Of a DNA stretch of 64,000 nt, positions 39,198 to 62,300 are shown piece after piece. The stretch is from positions 68,627 through 132,626 of the forward strand of contig WGBD01000004.1 of assembly GCA_015494465.1 (NCBI GenBank), read 5' to 3'. The position numbers and the translations under genes are program-made. The number at the start of each line of letters is the position of its first letter. The first letter of the stretch is position 1. The stretch comes from Candidatus Omnitrophota bacterium (GTDB lineage Bacteria; Omnitrophota; Gorgyraeia; S143-82). The notes beneath the pieces were generated by a model. That model was given only the letters and a program-made list of their open reading frames with translations. It ran no database searches and was not told where the DNA came from.

Positions 39198-39224
39198 ACT
39201 CCGTCCTTTAAAAGGGAGGGCAGA

Positions 39225-39257
39225 GAGGCAAACCCTAGGTGGCGGAGAGTTTGCCTC
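39225..39257. other. Inverted repeat / RNA hairpin in the 150-nt spacer between the two 1.6-kaa giant genes
   Basis: GAGGCAAAC (39225-39233) pairs with GTTTGCCTC (39249-39257) across a 15-nt loop. There is no clean U-tract on the transcribed (minus) strand. Confidence 0.35.
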
Positions 39258-39347
39258 CCGTGGGGGACGATCGCGTTCAACATCTCAACCGTCAGCAGTT
39301 AATAATATAGCCCGATCTGCGAGCTTCGTCAAGTTTATTTAAACATT

Positions 39348-42300
39348 TTAAAAACCTATGTCAATACCTCCGTGCCCTTCCTGTTTCTCTCCGTTTTCTT
39401 CTAGCCAAGCTTCCACCTCGTCCTCAAACTCGAAGATCTCCTCCAAAGCAGACGGTCCGGATTCACTTAAAAGTCCCTCCACCAGAAAGCTCACCAGGGC
39501 CGTTTCCGCTTCCTCTTCTTCGGGCAGGGCCCCGTTGGCCCTAAGCCAGGTGATGAACTTAAGGTGCCTTTCCTTGCGATTCCTCGTCTCGCTAAGACGC
39601 TTCAGAACCCACGGATCCGACAGCACCTTTTCTGCGGTAGGGGGTAATCTGTACAATCCCAGGAAATTCCCCATCTCTTCCTCCAACCCCTTGGCCTTCG
39701 CCAAGTCCCTCACCACTCCTCCAACGGATCTTCTCCCTGCAACTCCCCTAGGAGCTAGTAGCGAGGCGATCCCCTCGTCCATACCTTGACTTAAACGGGT
39801 GCGAATCCTCTCCTCGAACTCGGACTTCAAGGTCCGCAACAGCTCTATCCTGCTCCTCGCAAGCTGAAGTGAGGCGATGTGGACTGCATTGATCAACTCC
39901 ACCCCAGGGAAAGGCCCGTTCAGAGGCCCGAGGTCGTCGGTGTCCTCCCTCCCCTCGAGGTTCCAACGGAATTCAAAGGAGCGCAGGTCCTTCAAAAAGG
40001 CCTCTATTCGGTCCGGAGAGAGGTAGACCAGTCTCTCTTCCAAGGCCTTTTTTATCCTATTTACAGTATCAGGAGTGAACTTATAGACATCGGGGAGCTC
40101 TTCTGAATATTCGAATGCCTCCAAGAGGATAGGGACCAGGTCTAGGGACAACCCCTGCCGTCGAAGGAGTGTTTTGAGGACATCCTCGTGGATGTAGCCA
40201 ACACCCCTGGCGTAGTACAGGAGACGGGGGGCGTCGAACCTGTAAATCGCGACCCCAGGGAACAGCTCCTCGTCTTTCACCTCCAACTTACCCGAAAGCC
40301 AATCCACATAGAGGCGAGAGCAGAAGAGAGACACCTGTCTCCCCAAACTTGTCCAATCAATCCGTTTACGCACCCAGTCTTCGTAGTTCCGGCCCCCTAA
40401 GCCCTCGTAGGCGGTGCGCAGGACCCGTTCCAGCCCCAGTGCTACCTCCTCCGGGTCTTTCCACCATCCGGGATGGTGTTTGTCCAGCCACAGGATGTAG
40501 AGGTTCATCAAGGCGAAAAAGACCTCCCCCGAACGCTTGGCGTACGACTCCCAACTCCCCGGTAGCTCCTCTATCTCCCCGAAGTCCGCCATACCCCCTT
40601 TGCGGAAGTTTCCCCTGGCAAATGCCCTCCTCCAGTTGGTCAGCCTCCCCACCCCGAACCTGATTGCGGGACCAACCTCCCTGCTTCCTCTAATGAACCT
40701 CTCCGGTTCCACGAACAACTCGTACCTCCTGCCCAGTTCTCGATTGTGAAAGGCATTGACTAGACTGCGATAGTAAAGGCCAAGCGGGTAGAGACGACGG
40801 AGGGTGTCCACGCATAACCCCAGGGCTCCCCAGAAATTTCCTTCTTCCAGGTCTTCGGGATAGATGAAGAGATCCGGCGACTCCACCTCGTATACCAGAA
40901 AGGGGATCCCTTCTGCACTTTCGTCCAACTGCAGGGCAGGATTCGACCTCTTTATCCCCGCTCGGACCTTCTCCAAATCCGGACTGTCCCCAGCCAGAGA
41001 GAACAAGATTCCCCCCTTGAAATTCCTCACTAAGTGGGGGATCTCCTGTCTAATACCGAGGATTTCGGCATTTTCCCTGAGAAAGGTTATCACCGCGCCC
41101 TCCTGCCTCAACTCCTCTACTCCTCCGTCCAAGGCAAACTTTATTCGATACCACCTATCCCCTAACTTGAGCGTTAGGTTTCTCCCTTGAAAAGCAACCC
41201 TATCCCACGGGATCTCCCCTAAAACACGAGAAAGCGAGGACACCTTCTCAGGCGGACTGTCGTCTCGGTATCGGGAGATGCTCCCCAGAGAATTCGTCGG
41301 AGGGGACAGATCCTTGCCTAGGTAGTACACCGCAGGGAGAAGCAAGTACATCCAAGAGAAGCCGTCCCCTGCATCCATAAGATCCAAGAATTCCTCCTCT
41401 ATCCTATGCCTCCTCACATACGAGATCACCTTCCTCCAAAATCCTTCCGGCAGTTCCTCACCTTCCAGAAGGGGCCAGTACCTATCCGGGATCCGTATAC
41501 CTAAGTCTGCCAGGCGGGAGATCCCCACCAGAAACTCGGTATCCCTGCCCTTGAAGACCTCTTCACTGCCCGCTAGATCCCTCTTCTCCAGCAGGGACAT
41601 CGCAGTGAAGGCGTAAAGGGCCTTTATCAATTCGGTTATCGGGTAGGGCCCGTTCACCGGGCCGAGGTCTTCCTTCCCCCGTTCTCCGGCTGCATTCCAC
41701 TTCATCTTGTATTCCCCGAATATCCTCTTGGCCCTTTTCTTCAGCTCCTCCGGCCAGTCCATCTCCTCTATCCGCTCGTCAACATCCATCGGAATGAAGT
41801 ACTCTCCCCGCAAGTCACTGCCTAGGATCACATTACCCAACAACTCCTTGCTATCTATCCCCAGCTCCTTGGCGACCTTGTCTATCTCCCGGGAAGAGAT
41901 AGTCCCCCATCCTCTCATCTCTTCGTCCATTTCCTCCCTATCGGCAGGCGTGATAGAGGCCTCTGCAGGATAAGGCAAACCATCTCCACTCCTAACCGCC
42001 TCTCCGTACTCTCCCGAGCAAAAGACGAGCATTTGCCTGGCCATCAGTTCGAAGTCTATGTAGTCCATCACCGCATCGAGGGCCTCTGCACGAGGATTCA
42101 AGACCTGATAGGCATAAGAGAAGATCCTCTTCAAGGACCTCGCCACCTTAGGCGCGTACCGATCCGGATCCCTAAAATACTCCGGATGGTGGTCCAATAG
42201 GTACATAGCGTAGAGGTGGAACCACACGAATAGAACCCTCCCCGTATACTCAGCCCAATCCTCGGGTACTGCCACCGTTTGCAGTTCCTGAAAGTCCCAA

Positions 42301-44315
42301 AACCCACCAACGCGCAGGTTGGGATTCTGCATCCAGAACCTCCAGGCATCCATACGCCCAGCAGACCAAAGGCTCTGCCAACGCCCCTCCGCGAGAAATC
42401 TCCTTAGGGACTGGGACCAGTTATATCCCTCTTCCCGCCTAAGCAGGTTGTGGAACATAGTCGCAACTGCGGGGACCACGATCCTTGCCCGGGCCAACTT
42501 CATCAAGGTGTCTATGTTCTTGATGCTGGCAATAAAGAACTCCTCGTCGTCCTTCGCCTCTTGTAGATAACGGGAGAAGTCCTCCGCGTTCGGGTAGACT
42601 ACGAATACTCCCTCCCGGGAAAAAGCGAATTCCGGATCCCACCTTTTGGCGTCCGCTTCCCCCTTCTCCAGCAGGGCGTATAACCGAGGGTGTTTCTCTA
42701 AATCGATCCGAAACAAGAAACTCCCATTCCGCTCCAAAGGGGCTGGCACCTCTTGAATTATCCCCAATCTCTGCGCATTTTCCCTAAGCCACTTGGCCCG
42801 CAAGGCGTCTAGAATCAGATCTTCGTACCCAGCACCTGCCTTGAGAAACTTTATTCGATAACCCTTGAAGACGACCGTCCTACCTTGCACCTCTGCACCG
42901 CCAACCGAAAAGCCAGGGATCAGCGAAGCCATGTCCTCCACCTCGTTGATCTTTGCCATCCAATTCGATCCCGAAAGCTCCAGTTCCGTTGGAAAGGACG
43001 GATCTGCCTCTGTCAAAGAGGCCAAAGTATCTCCCTCCAGTGCGCCCAAGGCAAGGATCAACAAGTAGGGTGCGCTCGACAGGGCAACCCCACCTCCTTG
43101 GAGCTGGATCGTGATGGGCTCTTTAGAGGTCCATCCTCTGTTAAGGATGGATCCCCCTGCCAACGAGGAGAAGATCTCTCCCATCAAGTAGAGGTGTCTT
43201 TCCCTGGCCTTTATTCTGTCCAGCATCCTCAGGATCTTCTCTGAGACCTTAGGTATGTATCCCGCTGTAGAGAGCTTTCTAAAGTAGTCTCCCAACGAAG
43301 AATTCGGATGGAGCCTTAACCACGCCAGGTAGGTAAGCGAAAGCAGGTGAGGGGCATTCCCGTAGATTTCTTTTTCCGGGGAACTCAGGAGAGAGAGAAT
43401 CTCCCTTGCGAAGACCGTGAGGTCACAGGAAGGCTCAGAGCTGGCGAATACCTCGAGATCCAGTAGGTAAAGGTTGTGGATAAGGTGCCTTAAGGCCTCT
43501 TGGCTGTTCAATATCCCTTGTCCATATCCGGCCCTTATCCAACCTCGCACCATCTCCAAGGCCTTAAGCAATCCCTCGCTGTGATGGACTATCCCGTAGT
43601 TAGTCAACAATTTCTTAGGAGGAGTTGTCAAGATCGCCTCCTCCCACTCCGAAAGCCTCACCTCCACATCCGCACCGTCACAGCGCAGGATGATGCCCCC
43701 CACAGCCCCCTCGCTGAAAAAGACGGACTCAAGATAACTGTCTAGGAGCGACCTCAAAGGCCGATCTCCTTCCCCTCGAGCCGTCAACTCCACCGGCCTG
43801 ACGAAGTATCCCTTTCGCCTTAGCCACTCCGTCCACATCGCCTTATAGAGCAGGCGCAGGTCGGAAAAGGCGTCGGATTCGTTGACCACGCGGGTAAGTT
43901 CCTCTTCCAAGCGCTCTTCTGTGAGGCCGTCACCTATCCCTTCTACCTCCACCCGAAAGGGAGTGCCCTCGAACTCGACCTTACCAGCCCTTATCACAAG
44001 CCTTGGCCTGTTACCGATTATCCAACAGCGAAAGAGCCCTTCCGTTTTCTCTACCTCCTCAAAGGAGGACAACGCCTTCACGGTCTGTCTCTTCAGCTTC
44101 AGGTCTGCGGAGAGCAAAAGGCCGGCCAGATCCTCGGATAGTCCTGGAGAGAATATCCTGCCGTGGGGCCCTACCGGGTGCAGGTCTACCCACACCTCCA
44201 AGTTCTTGAGGGAGCAGATCTGAGGACTGAGAGAAGGCAGGTCTGCCTCAGCCCAGGCAATCGCTCCACCCAGAAGGAGCAAGGATAAACCCAAGCACAA
44301 AAATCCCTTTCTCAT
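39348..44315 (-). CDS. Giant hypothetical secreted protein (1655 aa) containing an internal ~450-510-aa tandem duplication
   Basis: Signal peptide MRKGFLCLGLSLLLLGGAIAWAEA. Repeat copy 1 is roughly residues 480-990 and copy 2 roughly residues 1050-1500. Shared blocks include YRIKF(L/A)..G, HHPE/HHPG...DPD/DPE and DLGPVNGPYP / DLGPLNGPFP. The acidic C-terminal tail is EEEEAETA...EDEVEAWLEE. Confidence 0.8.
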   Translation of the reverse strand: MRKGFLCLGLSLLLLGGAIAWAEADLPSLSPQICSLKNLEVWVDLHPVGPHGRIFSPGLSEDLAGLLLSADLKLKRQTVKALSSFEEVEKTEGLFRCWIIGNRPRLVIRAGKVEFEGTPFRVEVEGIGDGLTEERLEEELTRVVNESDAFSDLRLLYKAMWTEWLRRKGYFVRPVELTARGEGDRPLRSLLDSYLESVFFSEGAVGGIILRCDGADVEVRLSEWEEAILTTPPKKLLTNYGIVHHSEGLLKALEMVRGWIRAGYGQGILNSQEALRHLIHNLYLLDLEVFASSEPSCDLTVFAREILSLLSSPEKEIYGNAPHLLSLTYLAWLRLHPNSSLGDYFRKLSTAGYIPKVSEKILRMLDRIKARERHLYLMGEIFSSLAGGSILNRGWTSKEPITIQLQGGGVALSSAPYLLILALGALEGDTLASLTEADPSFPTELELSGSNWMAKINEVEDMASLIPGFSVGGAEVQGRTVVFKGYRIKFLKAGAGYEDLILDALRAKWLRENAQRLGIIQEVPAPLERNGSFLFRIDLEKHPRLYALLEKGEADAKRWDPEFAFSREGVFVVYPNAEDFSRYLQEAKDDEEFFIASIKNIDTLMKLARARIVVPAVATMFHNLLRREEGYNWSQSLRRFLAEGRWQSLWSAGRMDAWRFWMQNPNLRVGGFWDFQELQTVAVPEDWAEYTGRVLFVWFHLYAMYLLDHHPEYFRDPDRYAPKVARSLKRIFSYAYQVLNPRAEALDAVMDYIDFELMARQMLVFCSGEYGEAVRSGDGLPYPAEASITPADREEMDEEMRGWGTISSREIDKVAKELGIDSKELLGNVILGSDLRGEYFIPMDVDERIEEMDWPEELKKRAKRIFGEYKMKWNAAGERGKEDLGPVNGPYPITELIKALYAFTAMSLLEKRDLAGSEEVFKGRDTEFLVGISRLADLGIRIPDRYWPLLEGEELPEGFWRKVISYVRRHRIEEEFLDLMDAGDGFSWMYLLLPAVYYLGKDLSPPTNSLGSISRYRDDSPPEKVSSLSRVLGEIPWDRVAFQGRNLTLKLGDRWYRIKFALDGGVEELRQEGAVITFLRENAEILGIRQEIPHLVRNFKGGILFSLAGDSPDLEKVRAGIKRSNPALQLDESAEGIPFLVYEVESPDLFIYPEDLEEGNFWGALGLCVDTLRRLYPLGLYYRSLVNAFHNRELGRRYELFVEPERFIRGSREVGPAIRFGVGRLTNWRRAFARGNFRKGGMADFGEIEELPGSWESYAKRSGEVFFALMNLYILWLDKHHPGWWKDPEEVALGLERVLRTAYEGLGGRNYEDWVRKRIDWTSLGRQVSLFCSRLYVDWLSGKLEVKDEELFPGVAIYRFDAPRLLYYARGVGYIHEDVLKTLLRRQGLSLDLVPILLEAFEYSEELPDVYKFTPDTVNRIKKALEERLVYLSPDRIEAFLKDLRSFEFRWNLEGREDTDDLGPLNGPFPGVELINAVHIASLQLARSRIELLRTLKSEFEERIRTRLSQGMDEGIASLLAPRGVAGRRSVGGVVRDLAKAKGLEEEMGNFLGLYRLPPTAEKVLSDPWVLKRLSETRNRKERHLKFITWLRANGALPEEEEAETALVSFLVEGLLSESGPSALEEIFEFEDEVEAWLEENGEKQEGHGGIDIGF
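39816..41168 (-). repeat. Intragenic protein-level tandem repeat, copy 2, within the 1655-aa protein gene
   Basis: Residues ~1050-1500 align with ~480-990 (e.g. ERGKEDLGPVNGPYPITELIKALYAFTAMSLL versus EGREDTDDLGPLNGPFPGVELINAVHIASLQLA). Confidence 0.6.
41346..42878 (-). repeat. Intragenic protein-level tandem repeat, copy 1, within the 1655-aa protein gene
   Basis: See copy 2. The nucleotide sequences have diverged, so this is not a recent DNA duplication. Confidence 0.6.
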
Positions 44316-44330: not shown

Positions 44331-47300
44331 CTAAAACTCCAATCTCAAGAGGAGGTGATCCCTCTTCTTAAACTGGCCCTTTCTCCCTTCGAAGACAGGC
44401 CTGTCCCCTTCAAAGCGATAGACGAACCCATACGGGTGATAGTTTACATGAATTTTAGGGTAGTCTCTCCCAAAGCTATTTATCCTGTCCACTACCGAGG
44501 CCATCTGGCGAAGGCCTTTGACCGTGAGGTCCACGGCGATGTCTACATCTGAAGATTCCCTAAACCTACCTCTCAACAATCCACCGGTGAGGTAGATCCC
44601 CTTGGCTAACCTCTCCAAAACCAAGGGCTCGATCACTCGGAAGTAATACCGCTGAAGCTCTTCCCATATCTGCCCAAGCTCTAAGGGATTTACCATGCGT
44701 GGGAGTCGGTTCTCTGCCCTTACGAAGATCAACGGCTTAGTGACCGTTCCTCGAGAAGGTACATCTATAGAGACTTCGTCGTCAGCGACTATAATCTCAA
44801 ATGGATGGACCTCTCTCAATTGCCCCAAGACATCCTGGAGCGAATACCTCGGACGCACACCAGAGCCTTCACCTACCCAAGGCAAGATCACCAAGATTTC
44901 ACCCCGATCCCTGAGCACCCTGCTGGCCTCGGTAAAGGTGCGAACGATACCCTCTTTATCCAGACAAGACAGACTAAAGGGATAGAGGAGCAGGTCGAAG
45001 GAGGAGTTAGAAAAGGGCAGGTCCAACATGTCCGCCCGTACAACGGTAACTCCTTTTCTCCTCGCAAGCAATGGCATCTTCGGATCTATGTCGAGGCCAA
45101 TCACGAGATTTTTTCGAGCCAAAAGGGACTCAAAGCTCCCCTCTCCTGCCCCTAAAGAAAGGATCCTCTTCCCAACTATCTGCTTCCCTAAGAAATAAGA
45201 TAGCTCTGGATGGGCAGAGATGGAGAGGAGTGGATGAAAATTTCTGTGACCAGTCATAGGTGAGGATGGGGTCTCCGTCCGCTTTAGCACCAAGGAATCC
45301 CCCCACATCCCGACGATCTCGAACCGCAATCCCCTAACTATACCGTCCCAATCTATCTTCTCCACCACATCGAAAAACCAGTCGTCCATAGGCATTCTCA
45401 CATGGACCAGCTCTAGACAATCCGTTATCTCCTCTTGCCTGCGGACTACCGCCTTCACCGCACGGCTGAAGACCCTGGCCAGCAATTCGGGTCTAGTGTC
45501 TGGATGGGCCTTATTTAATTCCAAGTGGACATAAGCCTGCCTTCCATCTGGAGAATACATGACTTGAAAACGGAACAGGGGCTCGGGATAACTAGTCCCT
45601 TTTGGATTCTGGGGACCGTATTGAATAAAGTAGAGCTCGTAGAGCCCGAGAGCGCCTTCTCTGACCGCACGGAGCTCCGTGCGTACAAACGGCACGATCC
45701 TGCCCTTCCTGAGGGAGGAGGAAACTCCCTTCTGCAGTATAGAGAAGTCCTCTCCTCTCACTACCGGCGAAAATTCAGGGCCTAGCATTTCCAACCTATT
45801 CCGCACGAAAGGTTTCTCGAACGGATGGTAGAGCATCAAAAGCGCCCCCGGTCGAAGCGTTTCCTTGAATTTTTTAAACAGCTGATCCTCGTAACCGAGG
45901 TATTCTCCGCCAAAGTACTGATAGCAAGAACAGAGGAAGTAGTATATGCCGTCCGCGTCTGAGAGGTCTTTTTCCAGTGCATTCGCGTTGGAAAATTCTA
46001 CATCGGGCAGGGCTAGTCCTATTTGCCTCCCGAGCTCTCGGCTGAACGAGACCAATTCCCGATCGTACTCTATTCCCACCACCTTTGCTTGCGGAAACGC
46101 CTTTTTCAAGAGGAAGGCAACCCTCCCGTCTCCACTTCCTACCTCGTAAATCCTGCTCAATCTAATCGCGTTGGCAGAAGAGAAAAACCTCAGATCGTGA
46201 AGACCGGGTAATATCTTTAAGAGCCTGGACGGTACGAACCTGCCCATGTCCCTGACCAATCTATCCGAGATCTCCTCGTATTCGTCCAACCCTTGGATCG
46301 TCATCTCTAGCTTGCTGGCGTACTCTAACAAAGCCGGATCGCTGTAGCCAAAGCTCCTGAAGCTCCGGATCTTGACCTGATCTGGGCCCGCGGTCGTTTC
46401 TAGTCCAGAGACGACGTTAGAGAAGTCAATCCTCCCTTGAAGCGTCCGCGGGGACCCCGGCACTGCCACGCGATCCTTGATCCCGAAGGTCTCATACAAG
46501 GATGTCCTGGGCATGAACACCTGAACCGATGACACCTCCTCTTTCAACATCTCCATCAGCGCGAAGGCGAGGATTAATCTACCCAGCCCCTTTCTCCGCC
46601 ATCCGTGATTCACCCAAAAATCGAAATCCCCCCACTCTCCAATGAAAGCCCTGTCCAGATTACCCAACACGGAATACCTAAGGAGCCCGATCCTTCCGTT
46701 GCCCTTCTTCAGGTGGGCGGTTATCCACCTCTGGAACCTACTACTGGAAAGGGAAAGGGATATAGGTATCCCCTGCAAATCCAACTCCGCCAGGTCCCTT
46801 TCTACCAGAGAAGAGGCGCTCTTCTTGCGCATCTCCCGGATCCGCACATTGGAGGGGTCGGTGACCTCGGTAACGAACCCAAGACTCCTGTGAAACCAGT
46901 CCTTCCGCCACCAATTACCCCCGTAAGATAGGATCGAGACTCTATCTTGGTCTATCCCTCGAATCCCAATTCTAGAGAATAGGTCCGTTGGATATAACAG
47001 GAACAATCTAAAGTATGCGGGAGAAAGGACCTCCTTTCTGGTGCTCCCTCGCAGAGGGAGCTCACAGCCCCTCACCGACAGGAATAGATCCGCAGGATTG
47101 AGGAAAACAGCCCTTCTGCCTTCCAAGCAATCGAGTTTGAACTTGGGGACATCCTCGCCTCTTACCCAATCCTTGTTGGCCAGGAAGAGGGTCCTCAAGA
47201 GGAAGTACTTGGATACCTCGCTCTCTATCTCATCCACTAGACGACGAATCAGGGGTATCCTCTGGGAGAACGGCCTTTTGTTTTTATAAAGGGCGGACAA

Positions 47301-50300
47301 CAGATCGATCACCTCAACGTCTTTTTCCCTCAAGAGTTGGCGCATGTATTCCAGACCAGTTTCCCTTAGCTCACCGTCGCCTCCGAGTGCCATCACTCCT
47401 ACGCGCACCGAGTGAGCTTCCCCAATTAATCCCTTCAGCATAACCGCCACATCAAGGCACATAGAATCGGTGTTAGGAGAACGGATGTACCTTTCTGGAT
47501 GGAACTGACGATTGCCATTGCGCAAAGGATAGGGTATACGCATCAGGATGTCCCCACCCATGTCGAGGAATACGAACGAATGTCTCCCCGGGAGGGCGGT
47601 TCGAGCGACACCTGCCAGTCCCTTGGCCAGATCAAATCCAGACCTATTCAGGTCGAATATCACTACCTCAGCATCCTCTCCTGCGGAAGAAAATAGAGCA
47701 TAGACTCTGCTCTCCGCTAGTGGCCTACGATCTCCACCGTTCAGGTAAACATCAGGAGAATTGACTCTATAAAATCCGTCTGCACCACGCCAGCGGGGCA
47801 ATGGCCGGCCATCTCGCGTCTCTAACCTGCGGATGGGATACGGTCCTATCGCCTTCTGCTCGACAGCCCGCTTCAGATTGGGGCTGTACAGGAGGAGCTT
47901 CACATCCCTCCCTTTGGGTATACCAGGTAGGGGAATAAGTCCATCCTTGGCCAGGAGTCCTAGCAAACTGGCCCCCAATATGTCCCCTCCACCGCCCGCA
48001 GATACGATGTGCAGGTAGTGTTTGGTCCTATCCCCGGTTAAGGAGGACGGTCCAAGGTATCGCCTCCTAGAGGTATCCACATACCTGGCAAGACCGACCT
48101 CCAGATCGAGCCACAGCTCCTGCTCCCCCTCCTCTCGCTTTTTCTGTAGGTACTCGTATACCCCTCTATCCAGGATCAGACCTGGACGATACTCCTGGAA
48201 AGCCTCCACCACCCGTGCCCCCTCTAAACGGGTTAGATCAAAGCCGATCCTGAGTTGAGTCCCCTTTCGGGACTGGAGGTAGAGACAGCACTGGGCATCT
48301 CGGTACCTGTCAGGCCAATCCTTACAGAGTTGAGGGCGCCTGTCGTACAGCGCGCACCCGCACTCCACCCACAACAGATCAGGATTGTGAGGGGAGACCC
48401 TGATGTTCACCGACAGCCCTTTGCAAGGGTACTTTATCCCGAAGGTGGAGAGACTGGTATATGTCCGAACTGCAACTGCACGGTTCAACGGGGATATATT
48501 CTGAGAAAACGATCGAATAAGCCCCTCCCTAGCCAAGGCGTATCTTATGGGACCTGGGAAGAGCTCACCGGGATGGAAAAAGCAGCACAGTCCGTCTATG
48601 CAAAGTCTTCGCTCCTCTTTCACAAACGGCCAAAATACCGCTTCTTTCAAGGAGGACGCTTGAGTAGATATCCTGATCTTGCTCATCACCAGATCCTTCT
48701 CACTAACATCCCCAGGGACCCAGCGAAAGGAGGTGATGAGCTCCAGATCTCGTTGGGAGAACTGACTTACTTGCCTTGGAGAAAGACAGACCTCAACGGA
48801 CTTGACCGCCTCGGGATAGAGCAAAACCGCTCCCACAGCACCTATTACCCTCCGTATAGCGTCCCTCCCCTCGAGACCGCTCTGCAGGTAAAGGTTAATC
48901 AATCCCTCACGATATCTGCCCTTTTCGTGGACGGGCACATCCTCGTCTAGGATCCAGCTTCCGCGGTGATAACCGGTGGCCCTGGGGGGGAGCAGTCGAG
49001 AAATAGAGGCCCTCTTTATGTAGTCCGGGCCCACCATCAAGACCTTTTCCTCTTTACCAACTGCCAAGACATCGTCCTCCACCCGCAAGCCAAGCTTTTC
49101 CCCAAATTCGCGGAACTCTGCCTCTACCCGAGATGGATCGTCCATTTTCCTTCCGCTGAGCAGTATCACGCGGTTCCACGGTAGAAGGCCGTCCACATCC
49201 GAACCCGGCAGGGCCCGTTCCCTCACTATCGATCCAGTTAGGTAGATGTCGGACAACTCTACCCCTCCCATCTTCATCCAGTCTATAAACCCCTTTATCC
49301 CCAGTCTCACCAGGTGAGAATACTGCACCAAGAAGGGATCCAGCCAGGTCCATATGTGCTGAGAGCCACCACTTAAGGCCAAGGAGTTGAGGGCAACCAG
49401 GTATCCTAACACATCACCTATCCTCACCGAATCGTAGAGGTTGGAGAATAGTTCGTCCACACTATTGGTTCTAAGCGAGAACAGGCGTCTCATTCGGACA
49501 AAGCTCAGTTTAGTGGACAATAACTCGTAAGGGAAATCCCTGGATGTAATTAGACGGTACCGGCAATTGATAGGGATAGGGCCTATCAGGTTGTCAGGAG
49601 CGCGGTCTTCTTCCAAGATAATCTTGGTACCAAACATGCGCTTTCCACCTTCCCGCAGGACATCGAATACTTCTTTATCTCCTAGGATCCTCCCCAACCT
49701 AATGACATCGTCCCGCTTGGGCAGCAACCACACATACATCGCCTTCTCTAGATCTTCGGGTAAGAATCCGTACTCCAATAAAATCTTACCCAATATAGGA
49801 TTCCAAACCGCTCCCACGAGCACATCTTTGTGAGGGAACTGCGTGCGCGCCAAGGACACTATGTACCTGACGACCCTTCCACCCCACCCCCTACCTCGCT
49901 GGTGGACCTCTAAATAAGGGATAAATATAGCCTCCTTGGTATTCACGATCCCCACGGTGGCAACGGTCCTACCCATCTCGTCAGCAATCTTTAGTTTTTG
50001 GACGAAGGAATTATCGTTCAACGAGGAACTGACCTTATCTACGAACTCCCTAGGGCTCGTCTCTCGGAATATGTCCAGATCTCCTGCTGAGATGTAGCCT
50101 CCCTGCAAGAGGGAAGACCTTACCCAGCCCTTAAAGTGCTTCCACGAACTGTCCGGGAAGAGGTTTACCTCCGAGGCGTGGGATATCTTCTTGGTTTGGA
50201 TAAGCGTAGATACATCCAAGACCGAGTTGAGGGTAAGTATGTCCGGGAGGAAGGCGTATATCCCGCTCTGGGAGAAAGAGGAGACCAACCACTTGCGGGT

Positions 50301-53300
50301 AAAACTGTACTCGTACGGGATCTCCGTACTACTTTTCTTAGTTAGGAGGCGCAGACGCTTACCTACCTGCAACAGGACCCGCTTGTTAGAACGAAGCAGG
50401 TGCTTTATCATCCACTCCGCGGAGGTGTATATCCTTCGATTGTAATAAGTCATTACATCTTCCTTGCTAGGCACCAGGACCGAGACTATCTCGTTAGCAG
50501 GTGCCAGCTTTTGAATCGTCGCATCCGCCCGGAGCACATCTCCCACGAACCTCCACACCTTATCCATACCTGCCCGAGGCGGGAGCGGGGTATTCTTTGA
50601 ATAAAACTCTGCTGAATCCTCCCAGCCCCTGACCGTAGATATAGATCGCAAGCGGATGTGGGCCAGTCGCTTCTTCTCTACCAGCTCGTTGAGGAAGTTT
50701 ACGAAACCGGAGTAGAAAGACTCGTCTAAGAAGGCTATAGGTAAGTGAGGGACCTCTCTGTGCTTGCCCATCGCTAAGACATCTACCACCTCGTTCAAGG
50801 TCCCAAGCCCACCGGGCCCCACAAGCACTGCGTTTGCCAGACGGATGAGTCCCGTCTGCCGAGTGAGGAAGTACTTGCACTTGGTTTGATTTTTGTCCAA
50901 GAGATAGGGATTTTTGGGCTCCCCTGGGATCAGAATCCCTATGCCGCAAGATCGCTCGGGGTTGGCCCTAAACGCCCCTTCGTTGCCCGCCGTCATTATC
51001 CCTGGCCCTGCACCGGTAAGCACATTAAATCCTGCCCGCGCCAGGTAGTGGGTAATCTCTCTTACCGAGGCGTAAGCTCTCTCTTCTGGCTTGACTCGGG
51101 CAGAACCAAAGACCACTAGAGTAGGGCCTTTCATCCTACGACCCAACCTCTCGATGGATCTGAACTCCCGGACCAATCGTCTCTGATTGATAGAAGAGGC
51201 GGACGATTTCGTCTGCAACCAAGTATGCAATTCCTGCATTCTCTTCAAGAGTTCCTGCCTCAGGCCTTCGGGAACTACCTCATCAGAGGCCCTGGCTATC
51301 AATTCCCTCTTCATCCAATCTACACGGTCAGATTCTGGATAAGCCAGCTCCTCCATGATCCATATCGCCCTTTTGACGGCCTGCCTCACCAAAGACCCTT
51401 TGCGGTAAGTACGCAGTATGTACATCACCGTTGGGAGGTGCCTTTGGGCTAACCTGCGCTGTTCTTCGGCGAAACGCTCGTTGCACACCAGGTCCACCTT
51501 CATGGCCTTCAGGCCCAAGGCCCTGCCTATGTATCCAAGACTCTGCAACTCCCACCGCTCTCCGTTCCTCAGGATCCGATCCCCAAAGGGATTCATCCGG
51601 GATAAAGCCCTATTGATCGCCTTCACCACCCTATGTTCCCGAGTGATCCAGGAATCGTGCACCACCAGGTCCAGATCCCCAACCAGGGTCAAAGGTAGAT
51701 GGGTTTCTCCTCTTGGAAGCAGGTACCTTGCACTTCCTACCAGAGTGATTCTTGCGCCCAGGAGGGTACTCGCCCGTTTTAGAGCCGACTCCAGACCAAC
51801 CACATCCAATCCTCGAGAAGAAATTACCCTTCTCAGGGAGCTGGAGGTACCAACCCCAGCCAAAAACTGCCTAGCCAGGCCTATTGCTCTCTTCTGAGCA
51901 ATGTAACCTGGGCTGGTGGCTAATATCACCACCTTTGCCTTGGGGATTAGTTCCTCCACCAGCAACCTGTGCTCCCTCTCTGCCCAGGAGAAGGATTCCC
52001 TTACGAAGTCCAGGTCCACATCCAGTATGTCGATCCACCTTCCTCTGTCGGTCTCTATTCCCCAATCACTGCGGAGTCTGCCAATCAAGGAAGGCCAGGT
52101 CTTCAAGGGGAGGGTGGTCTCACCTCGAAGGTCGTAGTACCTCAGATCCATGCTTGGGAGCTTTACCATTACTCCTCTCCAATTCCTTTCGCTCACCAAA
52201 CCCAAGGTAATGAGCGGTCGAATCCAATTACCCACATCCAGGTTAGACAGCAGAGCTCGATGATGGGCAGCATCGTTAGGCGATAGATCCCTTACAAGGG
52301 CCTCCAGCTCTGGCAAAAGACCGGGATCAGTGAGATCGTTGAGGTCCTTGTGGTCGTCTATGTGGAGCATGTTGGCACCCTGGGGTACGATTCCCCTCTT
52401 GACCGCATAGGAAACGACTCCAAAGCCGTAGTGCTGATCGTCCACCACCGCAATGATCCGCTGGGGCAGTTCGAGCAGGAGATTCTCCTTTAGACCGTAG
52501 GAATACATCTCGGTCGTAGAAGGATCGTATTGGTCAAAGAGACCCTGCCAGAACCTCACCTCCCCTGGATAGATCCCGGCCCTTCCTAAGACTGGATAAT
52601 CCCCAAGCTCCAGACCCTGCACTATCTCCTCTAACGATCCAACCTTGCGCCACATTCGGGCCCTATTCCTCAGGATGGATTCTATCACCCTTTTGTTCAC
52701 CCGATCCCTCAAGGGATCTTCCCTCAACGCCGAGGAGGATCTTTGCCTTTCGATGCTTACATACAACCCCTCTCGACCTAGGTAGGGCAAAATGCGAGCC
52801 TTCCAACGCCCCATTTGGTTGACCCTGTCCACCACCTTCTGCCAGAAAGACAGGGGCTCTCTTCGCGGGACGACCGTGCTCGTCTCTAGCTGTAGGACTC
52901 CCCTATCCTCCGCCAGGGAGAGCAGAGAAAAGAAAAGTTTTTTATCTATTCCCTTGCCTCTGTATGTCTCTTCAACGAATACCTCCCCCACCTTCAGGAA
53001 TGGAGGGATCCCTATCCGGTTGTCCAAACCCAGATCGGAGAGGTGATAGGAGATAAAACCTACGACCCTCTTGCCGGAGAGGGCGAATATCTTATCTCGG
53101 AGCAGGTCCTCCCGCCGGACCACGGGGTAGGACTCGCCAAAGTACTTCTGGGCCTTCTCTACCAGACGGATCGCGGATTCTTTTCGGTCCTCAGGGAGTT
53201 CCGGCCAACTCACCAGTGAGACGCCTTCATCAGCCAAGCTGGAAGAGGTACGGGGAGAAAGGAGTCGGAGTTCTCTTAGGACCGACTCCTCCCAGTCCTT

Positions 53301-56300
53301 CCAACCCTCGAATTTCAGCAGTGCCCTGGATAGGGAAAGGCGGTTGGAGAAGTCTTGATAGGCGCTGTCGTATCGATCGACCAGCTCCATACTTCCAAAC
53401 CGCAGGAGCCATAGATACTGAACGACCCCAAAGATCCCTACCATGTGGCGGATAGCTCTGATCTCGGCTTCCCTCAAACCGAGGCCAAGTTCATCCGCGT
53501 AATAGTGATAGCGGATCAGCCAATCCGCTAGTCCATTCAACACCTCGTTTCTATCCCCACTTCCCCAGCCGTAGAAAGAGTCCGCCCTCACCAGGTCAAA
53601 GATCCGAGTCTCTATCCTGGCGGTATCGAGGTCCGCTACCAGGGCTATCTTCCCATCCCTCCAGAGGAGATTTCGCAAGGCGAAGTCTCCGTGAATAACC
53701 GTCTTGGGCAGAACAGGCCAGATTCCAGGATAGGACTTCCGCAGTCTTTCCACCTCATCCCTGAAGGTTTCCCAGTAATCCAGGAAAAGGCGTTCTCCCC
53801 GGCCAAGATCTTTCTTCGAGGAGATGCGCTGGTATCCCCGAAGTAGCCGAGGAAGACGACGATCGTTCGGCCCCATAAACGAACCTATCCGGTCGTAGTT
53901 CCGCCAGCCTCTCCTCGGTCTGAAGAGGAGCCCGTAGGCGTGGAAGCGGGCCAATACCCTCGCCCCTTCGTTTCTATGAGCCTCGTTAATCTCAGCCAAC
54001 CTGACGCCGTCTACCCAATCGTACAGGAGGAACTTGTCCCCGCTCACGAGAGTAATGGACTGGATCGCCTGATTAAGTCGATATCTGGGTACAGGGAAAG
54101 TTGCATCTATCCTCCGGAAGCTATCCAAAAGCTCCACCTCCCACAGGGCACCAGGATAGTGCCAAGGGGAGTGTTTTAACACGAAGCGCGGAATACCGGT
54201 CTTCTTGTCCACGATTGCAACCACATGGCTGACCCTATCTGAGATGTCCCGGATCCTCCAATCCCGAGGGGAGAGCCCGTACTTGAACATGGCCAACTCG
54301 ATCCTCGTCCTCGGCTCGGGCCTCTTCTCGTCCCTGCTTACCAGGGAGCTAGAGGTGCCACCCGAACGAGGGGAAGGGAGACCCGGATCACCGCTCCCCC
54401 ACGAGACTGCTCCGTCACCCATCGCGGATCTATGCGCAGAACCCGGGCCCCTCGATCCCGTCGTCTCAGCCCAAGCATATATCGGGAGCCTCTTTAAACT
54501 AGAGGGATCCACTATCCGATGTATTATCTCGTCCGTGCGATCGTCCCCAATGGACAGACCCGACAACCCGTATCTACGGCCTACGAAGTCAAGTATTATG
54601 TGAGTCAACTCGTGGGGCACTATTATCCCGGTAAGCGATTGGTCGTAGGGCACCAGGCCCGCCCTGCCCGATACCTTTTCAAACCCCCTGACCTCTACCT
54701 CTATCCTCTTCTCCGGAGTCAACTGGGCCCATCCCCCGTGGTCAAGTGCGGGGTTGAGAACCGCCCTTACCTCCACTTCCTCGGGAAGCTCCTTCTGGAC
54801 CAGCGAATCGGGAAATTCTCTCTTCAAGGACCTTACCACCGAACCCCAATCACTTCCCTCCGCTCCCTTTATCGTCGAGATCAATCTCTGATAATCCCGC
54901 ATAAATCTCGCCTTCTGCCCCACACTCCACCAACTGCTATTGGCCACCTCTTCCAAGGCCCGCAGGAACAACCCTCTGGCGTCCACCTGCTCAATCGTCT
55001 GCCTCTTCAACCAGTAAGTGTATGCCCTGCGAAGTCGCTCAACGGACCTTCCCGTATACTCGTCTCCTGCCCTGTTTACGAGGTAATCTATGCTCGCAAG
55101 TAACCTATGTTCCTGCCCTATGGCCGGCGCCTGCTCGACCATCCTCTCCAGCTCTGCCACCCGCTTGTTCAGATGGGCGTAGTTGCCCTCCTCGGAAGAG
55201 GCAACCCCCGCAATCCAGCGGGATCTCAACACCTCATCGTAATAGGCAAGTTCCGCTAATACCTCTGCCCTCTCTGAGGTTTTGACGGAAACGGGTCTGC
55301 CCTTCTCCAGCCAGTCCAAGAGTTCCCTAACGAAAGCAGTGTCCACTCCCTCTCCCTTACGGGTCAGATCCTGCCTGCGCTTCTTAGCAATGGAAACCGC
55401 CCTGTCTATCCTGCGGTACACCCCACCCCGCAAGACCCGTGATAGGCGATCTTCCTCTACTCTCAGAGAACTTGCCAGTTCCCAGAGCGCCTCCTTATCC
55501 GCGTAAAGCGCTCGTCCTTTAGGATTGGTAAGCGCCCGCCTCACCCCCAGATACGCCTTGGACTTTTTATCTACCGGCAGGCGCAGGAACTCCGCCAGAT
55601 TGCTGGCCCTCTGCAGCACGGTCCTGCGCCGGTCAAATCTGACGAAGGCGGATATCAGGGTCGGAGTGAGCAGGTGGGGATTACGATTTATCTCCTTCGC
55701 AAGGTTCTCGGAAACGAATAGACGATATCCAAAACCGGGGACGACATTTACCTTTGTTTCCGTACCATACAAGGCGGGATCCACCTGGACCAGAACATGC
55801 CCCTTCACCCCGTAATAGTCGCGAAGGAGTCTCGGCACCTCCGCCCTGAACCACCTGCCTGCGTTGAAGTAGACCTCGCCACCTCGGGTAGCAGGTCCCA
55901 ATTCCGCATCGTCCAATAGCGAGATCCCGCTGAACGAGACCTTTTTAACCCTTCCTCCCTTATTCCACACGAGGGCATAACCTCCTTTATCCACAGCAAA
56001 TACCGTATCCTCTCCAACGCTGGAAGGATGCACCTGCCTCAGCCTCCAGGCGGTCTCTACGGCCTCCGCCTCCCAGAGACTGAATGTCGGATGGGAAAGG
56101 GTCCTCTTTAAGGCCTTTATGTGAGCCCTGCGCACCGCCGACCAGAATTCCTCGGCAGAGGAGCCTTTATGCTTCTCCAACCTCCTTAAGTCCTCGGGTG
56201 ACATACGGCGGAAGGCCCTGCCCGTATCCACGAACTCCTGGGCATATCTCGGCAGGGCCAGTCGGTCCTTATTCCCAATGTACTCCAATTCTCTCCGGAT

Positions 56301-59300
56301 CTCTTCCAATGCATAGGCCCCAAGGCCCCTGACTGCCTCAGAAGAAGTACTGGAGCGGTATATCCTCTCCTCGCTCCTGCCCAACTGCAGGTCCATAAGC
56401 GAGGCATAGCCCAATTCCGCATTCTTCCCGGAGAGTATGCGGGCATAGGCGCTCAATTCGGGAGAGTCGGATTCCTCTACATCCCCTTCACTTATCAGGG
56501 AATAGTACAGGGCGATCTCGGGCAGGACCTCCTCTTTTAACAGCCTCCTGCCCCCGAATTCAATCACCGGCGCCTCAGACAGGAGTTCCTCCCGGGAAAG
56601 TTTCTCCCCCAATATCATCCCCATCGCCGAGCGCTGGACCTCGTCCACTCCGTTGAACGGCCCCACCGGTGTGGCGAGGACCTCCGCTACGGTCTCGTCG
56701 TCAATCCCTTCTTCCCTGTACAGTTCAAAGGTCTGCATAATCCGGGCGGTCCTGAATATGTCATCTCCTGCAGTAACCTCCCTCCTGCCGTCTTTCGTAT
56801 CGTATCTGAACCTCGCCCCTTCCGGCAGTCTCAGGACATCGCTCCAATTTCTGAGGACCACCTTCTGGGGAACCCCCGCCTGCGGGCTCTCGTAAGGCAG
56901 GTACAACTCCCCAGCAACGGACCTTCCTTTGGCTATGGCCCGGAATAGAGGTGCCCAGTTGTCGTCCTCGTAGGCGGATCCTCCCGGGGTCATCACTTCT
57001 TCCAGGAGTTCCTGAAGAAACATAGTCCCCGGCACGCCTGCGACCGCAAGGGCGGAGGTCCACGGACTCAAGCCAAGGCCTATCAACTGCTCCGCAACCA
57101 CCTCCTCCATCGTCCCCTTGAGCACCACATCCCGGGCCCTGCCCATCAGGGACAATGCAGGCCTTGGCCTGCCCAACCTCAGGTCCCTAAGCCCAAACGA
57201 ACTCACCGTCTCAAGGGCCTCTCCTGCACTGCGATAGATCCTCCCGAAGTCCCCCTTGCGAATACCCTTCAGGAAGGCCTGAGACGGCCCCATCAACGGA
57301 CCCATCATCAGGGAAAATGCGTAGGCCGAGGGCATAATGTCCCTTACCCCTTTCCCTTTGGCTGTTGAGGTCCCGAATAGAGTCATCCCCAAAGAATAAT
57401 CGAGCAGGCCAAACGCTTTATTTACTATCCCCGGGCGAGACATAACAGTCTTTAGACGCCCGACCGCGGTATCGTCGGAAAATGCAGAGAGCACCCCAAA
57501 CACTCCCCTCTCCACCTCCGAGCGGGCATAAGGCAGGGCATAGCGCCGGTAGAGGTAACTGGTCCCCACCACCGCGGTGTGCAGGGCAGGCATCACCAGA
57601 AACAGGGTAGACGCAGCGGGGATCAGCGTCCTCTCAACCCCGTAGTGGTGGACTAAAGAAGAGATCCTCGCTGCGACCCGGGGAGAGAGCCTCCTCTTCA
57701 CCACCGCATAACCCAACCCCATGCGGGACAGGCCTGCGATTGCCATAACACCGCCCAAGGAATAGAACAGGCCCGCCCAGTCGTCCCTGCCCTTGGCATC
57801 CATGTATACCCCTATACCGAATGGAACGGCAGACTGGAGGAGGTAATCTGCACCACGCATCCGGCTGAGGACCGAGCGATCTCTCTCCGCATACCGCCAC
57901 AGGTCCAGTTCCCTGTAGAATCCGGCCCGCGCGCCCCGGGTATCCGCCAAGATCCACTCCTTTACGCCGGTGAACCCGCCTCGTCCCGGGCTGTAGCGGA
58001 ATCGCCCACCCACCCTGTCCGCTATCAAGACCGAGGTCACCACCAGCGGTGAGGTCAGGAGGATGTAAGGAAGTTCGCTCCTCTCTGCAGAGGACTCCCT
58101 TCCGGTTATCTCCGCAACCTTATTCAGGAGGAGGTTTCTGGTGCCGTAGAACAGAGATGTGGAAGAGGACACCAACAGTGCAGAGTCGCGGGCGTGCTCG
58201 TAGAGGCGCGCAGGGACGGAAAGGGCACGAATCTCTGCCCTGCGGGAGGCGATTATTCGGTTTATACCCAGCCTCCACAGACCACCCACACCAAAGCCAA
58301 TGAGACCGAGGTTGGACAGGAGAACCGAGGCCCGGCGATACTCGGAACGATTGGGAAGGAGGAGACTGCTCCCGTAGGCGAGCGCACCACCGGCCATAAG
58401 GGCGGTAGAGGCCTTCCTCGCCACCTCTGGACGCCGGAAGGAGAGCCGATACACCGGGCTCCTTCTCACAAGTGCCTTTGCATAGCCGATACTTTTAAAT
58501 CCAGAGGCGAACAGGAACTCCCCTGCAAACGCAGATCCCACCAGATCCGTGCCGTTCTGGACCGCAGAAGAAAGGGCCCTCAGGAAGAAGTCGGGATTGG
58601 CACCGGTAAGACCCGACCTCATCGCACTGACCCCGATGTTGAATCCAATCCCCATCAGGACAAGATCCCCGGATGAACGGTAAACCCCACCAAGGTAAGA
58701 CAGCCCTCTCACCTGACCGGCGGAGATCTCCGCCCCCATTGCCCTGTATCCCCTATACGCGCCTGCGAGGAGCCCCGCCAGGTACCCCATCCGGGCCCGG
58801 TCCGCTTCCTCAAGACTGGTGGCGGGGGTGAGGATGTCCCGGAGCGAAGAGAAGAACTCCTTCGTGGACTCCACCGGGTGCCTGGCGAGGAGTATCACCG
58901 GAGAAAGGGATCCGGTTATCACCGAGGCATCCACGATCCCTACCACTGCCCCCGCAAGCGCAGGGGAATTCGCCTTTCGGGAGGCCTGCAGGAGCAGGGA
59001 CAGTTCGAGGTTATTCTTTACCCGATCCTGGCTTATCAAGCGGGCGGGCAGGAAGAACGCCCGGTGCAGGAGGGCCCCACCCGGTGAGACCCTGCCCGAA
59101 CGCAGGTCGGAGATGTAGGTTTCGGAGTCGTACCGGCCCTCAAGCCCCAAGGCCAAGGCAGTGTGAGAAAGACCTGCAACCGCCTTGGGATACCTATAGG
59201 CAACCTTGGAGAGGACCCTGCCCCCGTCGATAAACTCAAGTCCCCTTGCCACCGCAAGGCCAACCCCCTCGTAGCCCTTCAGGGGTAGGGACAGCGTCTT

Positions 59301-62300
59301 TTGGACCATCCGTTTGGTAAGGGACTGCAGTGGCTTTCTCAAAGCAAACCGGGCAGGGAGGGCAACCGCATCGTAGAGGAGAGAGATGTCCAACAGGACC
59401 TCCGCGCTGTCCACCGCCCGAACGAAGAGAGGCTCTGATTCACCTCTCGCACGGGAGACCGCCTCAAACCGGGTCCCGACACTCCCTTCCCTCAAGGCCC
59501 TGACGAGCCCGCTCATCTCCGGAGATACCAAGGAAAGCGGTTGAGAGGCCCAGCCCACCAGCCGGTATCCCAGTCCCGTGGGTCTATAACTGCCCTTCTC
59601 GGGGGAGTATTCCAGCACGCCCTTGCCGTCTGGTCCGTATATCCTCTTGGGCAGTCCCGCTTTTATCCTCGCCAGTTTCCCTCCGGGAGATAAGGAATAA
59701 TACTGCTTATTACTGCCTTCCAAGATGTACCTTGCCAGAAACGATACCTCCCCCGCCCACTCCCTTGCCCGGAAAAACCTCGGCCTGAATATCGGAAGCC
59801 CCCTCTCGTCGCTCCCCAGATACACATAGTCCCTCCCGACCCTATCCTTCCAGGTCCCTCCAAATATGTGGTAATACGATTGACCGGGAGAGGGCAGCAG
59901 GGCACCGTTCCTGACCCGCATCAGCCCGGGCACCACCACCTCTACCGCCGGTACACCCTCAAATGTGTCCTCCAGTGAGACCAATGCCGGGAGATGGGAA
60001 AAGACCTTGGTATCTTTCAGATTAGCGGAAGAGATCCCTTTCTTCCGCCCCGCCTCCGGAAACGAGACTATACCCTGACCGACCTCCACCACCACATCCG
60101 GACTGTAGATTTCCACCTCCACCTCACCGGAATCCGACCTGCCTATACGAGAGGGGAGTCTGAGCATCGCCAGTCCAAAGGGCAGGCCGGAGCCCTCCAC
60201 ATACTGATACTCACCGAGGAACTTCAGGCCCTCCACATCCCCCAAGAGTTTGAACCGCCAACTTCCCTTTGCTCCGTTCTTACCTCCCATTCCAGACCGA
60301 TAAGAACCCTCCCCCCGGAGGCGAAAACCGAGCGTCGGGGCCCAGAAGACCTCCCCGGGCAAGACATAACCCGCCCGGGATAGGGCAATCTTCCGGGAAA
60401 GTGCTTTTGACCTGCCGTGCAAGTCCAAGAAGAGGCTCTCCTTCCCCCGATAGGGATCTATACGCTCCAGTTCAAAGGTAACCCGCCGAAACTGACGGGG
60501 GACGATCCTCTCCAGATCCTTTTTGAGGAGTTGAGCGAGGATCTCTCTCTTCTCCCGGGCAGATATGTTCCGGTCATAGGCCACCCGGGCGAGCATCTCC
60601 GCCAGCCTGTCCCCGTACTTATAACCGTCGGAGAGAATGTGTCGGTTCAGGACTTTGACCGCCTCAGCGTCGCCCAAGCGCAGGGAGTTCCAGACTCGAT
60701 CGAGAAGATAATCCACCACATCCGACCGGGTGGCAAAGAAGATGCGCCTTTCTCCCACCGGGATCCCCGATGACCTGAGGCTATCCAACACCATACCTAG
60801 GTACAATCCCTTGCTACCCAATCCCAATATCCTGTGGTTCAAGTCAATCTCCAGCATCCCGTCCCGCAGGGAAAGACCCACACCTTTCTCCCCCCGCAGG
60901 GCCCTGCGGATACCCTCCCTCTCCTGAGGGGGTAGAGATACATCCACAAGGGAAAGGAATGCCTTCCTCCCCGAAGCACTTTTATACCCCCTGTTCACAG
61001 CCATGTACACCGCGGAGTTGATCGCCACCGGCACCACTGAAGGTATCCCTCTGATACCGGGTGAGTAGTTCTCCTTCTCCACCCACTTACCGTTCTCCTC
61101 AACGAGGGGCAGGGAATACCCCTGAGAGGCATACCACCTGGAGGTGAGAAAGAGCCGTCGGGCCCGACCGGAGGTGTAGAGGGGATAGTCCACGAACAAC
61201 AACGGGAGCCCCATGCCTCCGTTGGGAAGACCCTGCGCATTGACCAGCGGGGCGGAGTGGCTTATCCGTTTCCCGGACCGGCCAAAGCCCTTGGCAAAGA
61301 GCCCGACACCATTGGTGAAGTCCCGGGAACCGAGCATCTCAAACAGGTGAACCACGATAAACGAACTGAACGCACAGTCCTGTTCCTGCATCGCCTTATA
61401 CGAAGAGAAGATCTGAGCAAGGGCCATGTCGTGCAGGGTCTTTTTAGAGATCTCTTTTACCTTATTTGAATAAGGCCGGGGCAAAAACGACCTCATCGCA
61501 GGGGAGGTCTTTGCGATTTCCTTGGAAAGTTCCCTCACCGTCATCTCCTTTATGTCCACCTCCGTCTTGCCCAGCACCCTGGCGATCCGTGCTATCCACA
61601 CAGGTACTATCATCCCTTCTCGCTCGAGATTACCTATCTTCTCGTCGAGCGACCCTCTCATACGATTCAACAAAGGACGGAACTCCTGCAGGAGGAGGCT
61701 ATCCAACAGCGCCTGCACCTTTTCCTCGTATCCGGGCTCTGCGGTATCTATCTTCTTCACCCCCTCCTCAAACCTCTCCATCACCCGCGCCAGTGCCTTT
61801 CGTTCCAGCCCCATCCTCTGCATAACCTTGCCTGCGGGCTCAACCGATCTGGCAGAGATCACCATCCAATCCCCGTCGAACTGCTTTCCCACCAAGGCAT
61901 CCGCAACCCGCTGGACCTTACCCAGCCAGAAGGGGCCAGAATCACCCGCAACCTCCAGCATCCTCTGGCTTTTTGGCTCTAGCCGACCCCTTTCATCGGT
62001 AAATACCCGAAAGACATCAACCAAGACAGGGGAAAACTCCCTTGGCGTGTCCATGTCGTAAAGGTAGAAGGTAGAGATCCTCGGGAAGGTCATCGTGTGC
62101 CTCGCAAAGTCCAAGGTCATCTTCCCGTCCACGGGAGAGATCGCCTTCAGCCTACCGGTGGTATCCCGGAAGAGGTAGACCCCAGTCCGCTCCTTCCTAC
62201 CAAGCCAGGTGGTAAGAGAATACACCTTCTTTATCCCCTCTCCCCGACCGAGATAGCGGATCTTATTCCCGGATAGGGTCACGAAGAAACTGACCCAACC

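Follow-up and report, generated by a model that had tools for sequence, protein, structure and literature searches.

A tandem SidJ-like kinase-fold protein encoded next to a CheR-domain protein in a Candidatus Omnitrophota genome

To our knowledge, SidJ is the only characterised protein-kinase fold that glutamylates proteins, and all work on it has concerned its role as a calmodulin-activated meta-effector of Legionella. The kinase-like adenylation site of SidJ comprises R352, K367, E381, N534, D542 and D545 (PMC6858067), and H492, R500, Y506, R522 and N733 form a second, "migrated" pocket in which the acyl-adenylate and donor glutamate are bound (Osinski et al., 2021, bioRxiv 10.1101/2021.04.13.439722). 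Homologues outside Legionella are taxonomically scattered, lack SidE and the IQ motif, and keep the kinase-site residues; their substrates and activation "will likely differ" (Osinski et al., 2021). Here we describe a relative of SidJ encoded in a 64,000-nucleotide stretch of a Candidatus Omnitrophota bacterium (GCA_015494465.1, contig WGBD01000004.1, positions 68,627 to 132,626), referred to below as the window. An open reading frame (ORF) on its minus strand (39348..44315, ATG start) encodes P0001, a protein of 1655 residues with two SidJ-like modules, and lies beside a gene for a protein of similar size with a CheR-type methyltransferase domain. We put at roughly 0.6 the probability that P0001 would be an exported or anchored, calmodulin-independent, two-headed protein-glutamate ligase of the SidJ type that is paired with the CheR-domain protein.

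Pfam is silent on P0001 (no match at E<=1), and therefore an earlier note on this DNA, which had delimited the reading frame exactly, recognised no domain and offered the protein as a candidate new family. However, the modules are members of the SidJ kinase-fold superfamily, in which profile, fold and residues agree in placing them. The best and only NCBIfam matches of P0001 are NF033874, "SidJ-related pseudokinase" (E=1.4e-15 over residues 476-697, 57.2 bits against a curated cut-off of 300), and NF033873, "SidJ family T4SS effector polyglutamylation protein" (E=5.9e-6, 25 bits against a cut-off of 400). These scores place the protein outside both curated Legionella SidJ/SdjA families, as a relative at superfamily level only. 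When module A, the first of the two, was searched against the PDB with phmmer, only Legionella SidJ was retrieved (E=1.8e-7). Module B alone found no match in the same search; it is assigned to SidJ because it is homologous to module A, scores 290 bits with the family hidden Markov model (HMM) and keeps the conserved residues. A profile of the four modules of P0001 and its orthologue (A1) was then run against 1.84 billion cluster representatives, where 243 relatives pass E<=1e-3, 98 of them also at E<=1e-10; many of the family's modules sit within giant proteins of 3000-5500 residues. With a 34-module alignment drawn from these relatives (A2), the PDB match to SidJ rose to E=5.6e-60 (207 bits), and the next entries were the N-lobes of FGFR kinases at E of about 0.04-0.4. 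A profile scan of GTDB species representatives, which include neither this genome nor one close to it, found no relative with the module alignment.

The structural comparison suggested in the earlier note, an AlphaFold model of a single module followed by Foldseek, likewise led to a known fold. With A2 as the alignment, AlphaFold2 modelled module A, the one module so treated, at a mean predicted local distance difference test score (pLDDT) of 79 and a predicted template-modelling score (pTM) of 0.80, superseding an earlier run on a four-sequence alignment that was unusable (pLDDT 46). Against the PDB, the top 15 Foldseek matches of this model were all SidJ chains (E from 4e-12 to 3e-10, probability 1.0, template-modelling score TMq 0.50-0.56), after which came a gap and then PRPK/Bud32 and AceK at E>=0.1. 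The same model found nothing significant in a viral structure library, and no PADLOC defence model was detected on P0001 or on three of its downstream neighbours, the CheR-domain partner included.

Set beside Legionella pneumophila SidJ (paralogue SdjA; structures 6K4K, 6OQQ, 6PLM, 7MIR and 7PPO), a calmodulin-dependent kinase-fold glutamylase, P0001 has the same fold and the same residues in the canonical site and in the migrated pocket, at about 15-16% identity in structural alignment. It differs in several respects. SidJ has one catalytic domain and P0001 has two per chain; no IQ calmodulin-binding motif was found in P0001 or in its distant relative P0004 with strict and relaxed regular expressions; and nothing in P0001 resembles the SidE-binding N-terminal domain, the alignments beginning only at SidJ residue 346-349 or thereabouts. 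SidJ belongs to a Dot/Icm effector context, whereas P0001 begins with a Sec-type signal-like N-terminus and comes from an uncultured environmental bacterium. Pfam scans of the annotated neighbours showed no SidE-type ADP-ribosyltransferase, phosphodiesterase or deubiquitinase genes, although no dedicated SidE search was made. P0001 matches the description of the non-Legionella homologues given by Osinski et al. (2021), but those are single-domain proteins with no function assigned, and the tandem layout, the giants and the pairing with a CheR-domain protein are not described there. Beyond that study, the literature that could be searched yielded nothing on SidJ homologues or on SidJ in Omnitrophota or giant genes. 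As far as could be found, neither the tandem architecture nor the conserved CheR-domain partner has been described, and the same holds for the repeated occurrence of the module in giants that otherwise lack Pfam matches (P0005 and P0008).

The two modules arose by internal duplication, as the earlier note had proposed. When residues 431-1010 were compared with residues 1011-1655 by BLASTP, they gave one collinear alignment of 450 columns, of which 30% are identical and 44% positive; with composition-based statistics it scores 120 bits (E=8e-33), and it takes in all three pairs of motifs quoted in that note. An HMM built from the modules sets their limits at residues 470-1001 for module A (41313..42908, minus strand) and 1036-1530 for module B (39726..41210, minus strand), close to the approximate 480-990 and 1050-1500 proposed before. 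At the DNA level only two short matches are left between them, one of 32 nucleotides at the DLGP-NGP motif (E=6e-4) and one of 15 nucleotides at YRIKF. The statement that the nucleotide sequences are not similar was thus accurate, and this near-total loss of DNA similarity indicates that the duplication is old.

Relatives with the same architecture give a further bound on its age. P0002, at 72% identity, is the only full-length orthologue of P0001 among 5.8 billion clusters. The more distant P0004 (1825 residues) also carries two modules, at residues 471-1125 and 1180-1656; the first scores 348 bits with module A and 120 with module B, and the second scores 247 bits with module B and 131 with module A. 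The modules therefore pair by position, and the duplication is older than the split between these lineages. The giants P0005 (4726 residues) and P0007 (5544 residues) are two-module proteins as well, and the pair in P0007 is, as judged from sequence, the product of an independent duplication. Both copies have also been maintained: between the two orthologues, the ratio of non-synonymous to synonymous substitution rates (dN/dS) is 0.115 in module A and 0.132 in module B, compared with 0.22 in the N-terminal region and 0.48 in the C-terminal region. These low values in both modules show that both heads are kept by purifying selection, and nothing in the sequence marks either of them as degenerate.

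An alignment of SidJ and the two modules to the family HMM allowed the catalytic residues of SidJ to be followed into both modules, with SidJ numbered as the 7MIR index plus 95 in the HMMER alignments and the codons verified. In the kinase-like site, the Gly-loop arginine R352 corresponds to R479 in module A and R1045 in module B, the beta3 lysine K367 (the YRIKF motif) to K489 and K1059, the alphaC acid E381 to D503 and E1072, N534 to N666 and N1236, D542 to D674 and D1244, and D545 to E677 and E1247. In the migrated pocket, H492 corresponds to H622 and H1190, Y506 to Y631 and Y1198 (the tyrosine being placed by the three-way alignment of SidJ with the two modules), the donor-glutamate-binding arginine R522 to R654 and R1224, and N733 to N888 and N1466. 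Across 78 full-length family modules, the D542 equivalent is invariant (78/78) and the N534 equivalent nearly so (77/78); the histidine and the N733 equivalent are each kept in 76, the lysine in 74 and the R522 equivalent in 71. The D545 position is variable, with glutamate in 37, aspartate in 16 and histidine in 13. The DLGPxNGPxP loop, one of two features named in the earlier note as possible functional sites, aligns with N733 of the migrated pocket, whereas the other, HHP, is local to the clade of P0001; it is not conserved across the family and was rejected as a catalytic motif.

By these alignments P0001 apparently contains two diverged SidJ-type domains, both predicted to be catalytically intact. 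It could be argued instead that one head is catalytic and that the other is a pseudoenzyme, serving in substrate docking or, in place of calmodulin, in allosteric activation. The pairing of a kinase with a pseudokinase in tandem is a known solution, as in JH1/JH2 of JAK, the calmodulin that SidJ requires as an external activator has no IQ motif to bind in P0001, and identity between the modules is no more than 30%. However, every mapped catalytic residue occurs in both modules and dN/dS is equally low in both, so that we consider such a division of labour unlikely. Two active heads would probably recognise different sites or substrates.

CheR enzymes methyl-esterify the gamma-carboxylates of glutamate, and they methylate glutamates of methyl-accepting chemotaxis proteins (MCPs). 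The gene directly downstream of P0001 (34290..39197, minus strand) encodes a protein of about 1632-1635 residues with a signal-like N-terminus and, at residues 1432-1528, a C-terminal CheR-type S-adenosylmethionine (SAM) methyltransferase domain (PF01739, E=3.9e-9, 36.7 bits against a gathering cut-off of 27). The PDB CheR 5FTW is matched only at E=0.019 and the NCBIfam CheR equivalog at E=0.051, far under its cut-off; on these matches the domain is CheR-like, not a bona fide CheR. About 1400 residues of the protein carry no annotation. With hmmsearch --max, no SidJ-like module was found in this protein or in the giant encoded upstream of P0001. The gap between the two genes spans 150 nucleotides (39198..39347) and contains the best promoter-like match of the cluster, TTGACG-17-TATATT (10/12, minus strand, 39332..39304); promoter-like and terminator-like sites in the cluster were not above the frequency in shuffled sequence.

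A CheR-domain gene lies immediately downstream of a tandem SidJ-like gene in three genomes, in one of which the modules are only 31-40% identical. In that of P0004 (GCA_054040295.1), the order is an MCP gene (HAMP and MCPsignal domains), P0006, P0004 and a gene for a 1706-residue CheR-domain protein (L084 15752..20872), which is a full-length homologue of the partner (28% identity, 602 bits). The MCP gene and P0006 (L084 4557..10004) there replace the giant upstream of the tandem gene; P0006 has 1092 residues and a single SidJ-like module, which scores 150 bits with module A and 149 bits with module B and stands equally far from the two. What the three genomes share, and hence the conserved core, is a pair of genes, one for a tandem SidJ-like protein and one for a CheR-domain protein of about 1650 residues. 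Moreover, an HMM of the partner detects its N-terminal domain (residues ~30-240) in P0061 (E=1e-17) and P0005 (E=2.5e-10), joined in each to SidJ-like modules, and these fusions lend the pairing independent support. The other genes of the run are not conserved partners of the tandem gene. The giant adjoins it in two genomes and not in the third. An AMP-binding ligase gene and a DUF763 gene, which trail the CheR-domain gene with gaps of 3-4 nucleotides, likewise occur in two genomes and are absent from the locus in GCA_054040295.1.

The N-terminus of P0001 is predicted to direct export or to serve as a membrane anchor. Residues 1-22 (44250..44315, minus strand) read MRKGFLCLGLSLLLLGGAIAWA and are followed by EA; by Kyte-Doolittle hydropathy and conservation in the orthologue, a heuristic approach, they resemble a signal peptide, with MRK, a hydrophobic core of 18 residues and a putative cleavage site after AWA (hydrophobic segment 3-24). 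The n/h/c layout is Sec-like, with A-x-A at positions -3/-1, and the orthologue keeps LAWA/ES around the site. Every protein in the set starts with a positive n-region and a hydrophobic stretch of 18-20 residues, and the N-terminus of P0004 looks more like an uncleaved anchor.

A hydrophobic N-terminus could also be an anchor that tethers a cytoplasmic enzyme to the membrane, where P0001 would act with the CheR-domain protein on the glutamates of MCP-type chemoreceptors. This arrangement would keep the enzymes where ATP, SAM and glutamate are found, it agrees with the methylation of MCP glutamates by CheR, and an MCP gene does lie directly upstream of the SidJ-like genes in GCA_054040295.1. 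However, the charges around the hydrophobic segment, a positive n-region followed by acidic or neutral residues, predict an N-in/C-out orientation in all members, the A-x-A site suggests cleavage, and just one genome of the three has the MCP neighbour; we regard this arrangement as very improbable.

The reaction that we favour, protein glutamylation of the SidJ type, would proceed in two steps in each head. The kinase-like cleft, with its Gly-loop arginine, beta3 lysine, alphaC acid and the asparagine and aspartate that serve as metal ligands, would adenylate a carboxylate with ATP/Mg2+, the likeliest one being that of a glutamate side chain in a target protein. The migrated pocket, with its histidine, tyrosine, asparagine and donor-binding arginine, would then exchange AMP for a free amino acid and form an isopeptide bond. 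Retention of the R522 equivalent suggests glutamate as the donor, which is the most likely amino acid in our proposal, and calmodulin would not be needed. Since the CheR-like partner addresses the same chemical group, a joint "glutamate-carboxylate modification" system is suggested, in which P0001 and the adjacent CheR-domain protein of about 1650 residues would be two enzymes that modify the glutamate carboxylates of proteins.

The modules might, on the other hand, run a different nucleotide-dependent reaction, such as AMPylation only, phosphorylation or the transfer of another amine or amino acid, and the target might even be something other than protein, for example a cell-envelope polymer. 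Kinase folds can support varied chemistry, and SidJ itself auto-AMPylates (PMC6858067); Osinski et al. (2021) considered it likely that the substrates and activation of SidJ homologues differ; and among the neighbours of P0001 are an AMP-binding ligase and a giant that combines many enzymes of the small-molecule type. It can be argued, however, that the ligation half-reaction has been retained, since the R522-equivalent arginine and the histidine and asparagine that stabilise the acyl-adenylate are present in 71-76 of the 78 modules and the tyrosine is placed by the three-way alignment. A different chemistry is therefore improbable in our estimate.

Several points weigh against a two-headed glutamate ligase acting with a CheR-like enzyme outside the cytoplasm. 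The choice of donor amino acid would be an extrapolation from Legionella SidJ, and so would the class of reaction itself (ligase, AMPylase or kinase). P0001 falls far short of the bit scores required by the NCBIfam SidJ models (57 where the cut-off is 300, and 25 where it is 400). No residue of the modules pairs unambiguously with SidJ R500, which lies within an insert specific to SidJ: arginines occur near its position in module A (R626/R627) and in module B (R1192/R1196/R1197), but which of them, if any, is equivalent is ambiguous. For the partner, the CheR match takes in only positions 2-96 of the 195 in the Pfam model, or half of it. The signal peptide was assessed by eye and hydropathy alone. 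Finally, export would put enzymes that depend on ATP, glutamate and SAM outside the cytoplasm, an arrangement that would make sense only with delivery into another cell or with action in an unusual compartment.

Delivery to another cell, as for Legionella SidJ, would be one resolution of this last difficulty, and it would fit a bacterium that is rich in giant genes and possibly host-dependent. In a bolder and doubtful version of the proposal, the SidJ-like protein and its CheR-domain partner would form an exported glutamate-carboxylate modification system with which a possibly predatory or epibiotic bacterium inactivates proteins of other cells, a free-living counterpart of the SidJ effector whose module has been reused in giants. 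The glutamate ligase paired with a CheR-domain protein, to which our estimate above applies, would place SidJ machinery, with both nucleotide pockets intact, in a double-headed, calmodulin-independent and apparently exported form in environmental bacteria, in stable partnership with a CheR-like glutamate methyltransferase protein. The SidJ-like domain is also a recurrent cassette of otherwise unannotatable giants: in P0005 (4726 residues) and P0008 (4193 residues), which have no Pfam match at E<=1e-4, the module is at present the only interpretable part. The locus may therefore offer a testable entry to the role of SidJ homologues beyond Legionella and to the "dark" regions of bacterial giant proteins.

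Outside the modules, P0001 has two further regions. Residues 25-469 (42909..44243, minus strand) form an N-terminal region of unassigned fold, without a Pfam or NCBIfam match, which is common to the N-termini of other SidJ-like proteins (BLASTP against P0004, E=2e-25; P0042, 3e-13; P0006, 2e-12). A hidden third SidJ-like module in the N-terminal 470 residues was excluded by hmmsearch --max with the family HMM. Residues 1531-1655 (39351..39725, minus strand) are a fast-evolving C-terminal region, as their dN/dS shows, and end in GHGGIDIGF. The strongly acidic tail described in the earlier note is real in P0001, where the last 60 residues contain 32% D/E and 2% K/R, but its charge is not conserved: the same stretch of the 72% orthologue contains 18% K/R, and the tail was set aside as a conserved feature. 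A GGI motif lies within the last 25 residues of P0001 (39351..39425), P0004, P0006 and P0027, where the forms are GHGGIDIGF, EAGGIYW, KGGIEFEG and HGGIDLS, respectively. It occurs in four of 150 family proteins, against a background rate of 0.005 per 25-residue window, and could be a sorting or processing signal.

The window is otherwise an ordinary stretch of bacterial chromosome, with genes for GroEL, SerA, PurD, enolase, GAPDH, GatA/B, SHMT, MurI, a peptidoglycan amidase and a V-type ATPase. P0001 belongs to a same-strand run that is identical in the genome of the orthologue and consists of the giant, the P0001 gene, the CheR-domain gene, the AMP-binding ligase, DUF763 and V-ATPase genes; the P0001 gene itself is identical to a gene called in a metagenome-assembled genome, GCA_027052805.1 (contig JALUEM010000002.1, 782 kb). 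GatB from this chromosome shows no more than 58% identity to GTDB species representatives, with Planctomycetia, Omnitrophota, Bacillota and others intermingled in the best matches. The giant gene (44331..63998, minus strand, running on past the end of the window) encodes 8047 residues in the source contig, 6555 of them within the window, and its stop precedes the P0001 start by 15 nucleotides, with a purine-rich GGAAGG just before the ATG. Its Pfam domains include an APH/CotS-like kinase fold, two or three GNAT domains, Lysine_decarbox/SLOG/LOG, two class-I methyltransferases, two nucleotidyltransferases (NTP_transf_2), DUF1152 and a UPF0489/peptide-arginase-like domain. The Omnitrophota "Archaeovorins" (West-Roberts et al., 2023, bioRxiv 10.1101/2023.11.21.568195) have a comparable mix, sharing the methyltransferases, GNAT and Lysine_decarbox/LOG domains, and many SidJ-like modules likewise lie within giants, whereas P0001 itself has only 1655 residues; no mention of SidJ-like domains was found in that work. 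On the other side of the CheR-domain gene, Pfam on the called genes identified the AMP-binding (acyl-adenylate-forming) ligase at 32745-34286 and the DUF763 protein at 31637-32740, both on the minus strand. On the plus strand, the window also encodes a 1182-residue protein with GGDEF and AAA_16 domains (2824..6372) and a T2SS-F/PilC-type platform protein (6834..8060), the second of which may bear on secretion or pili.

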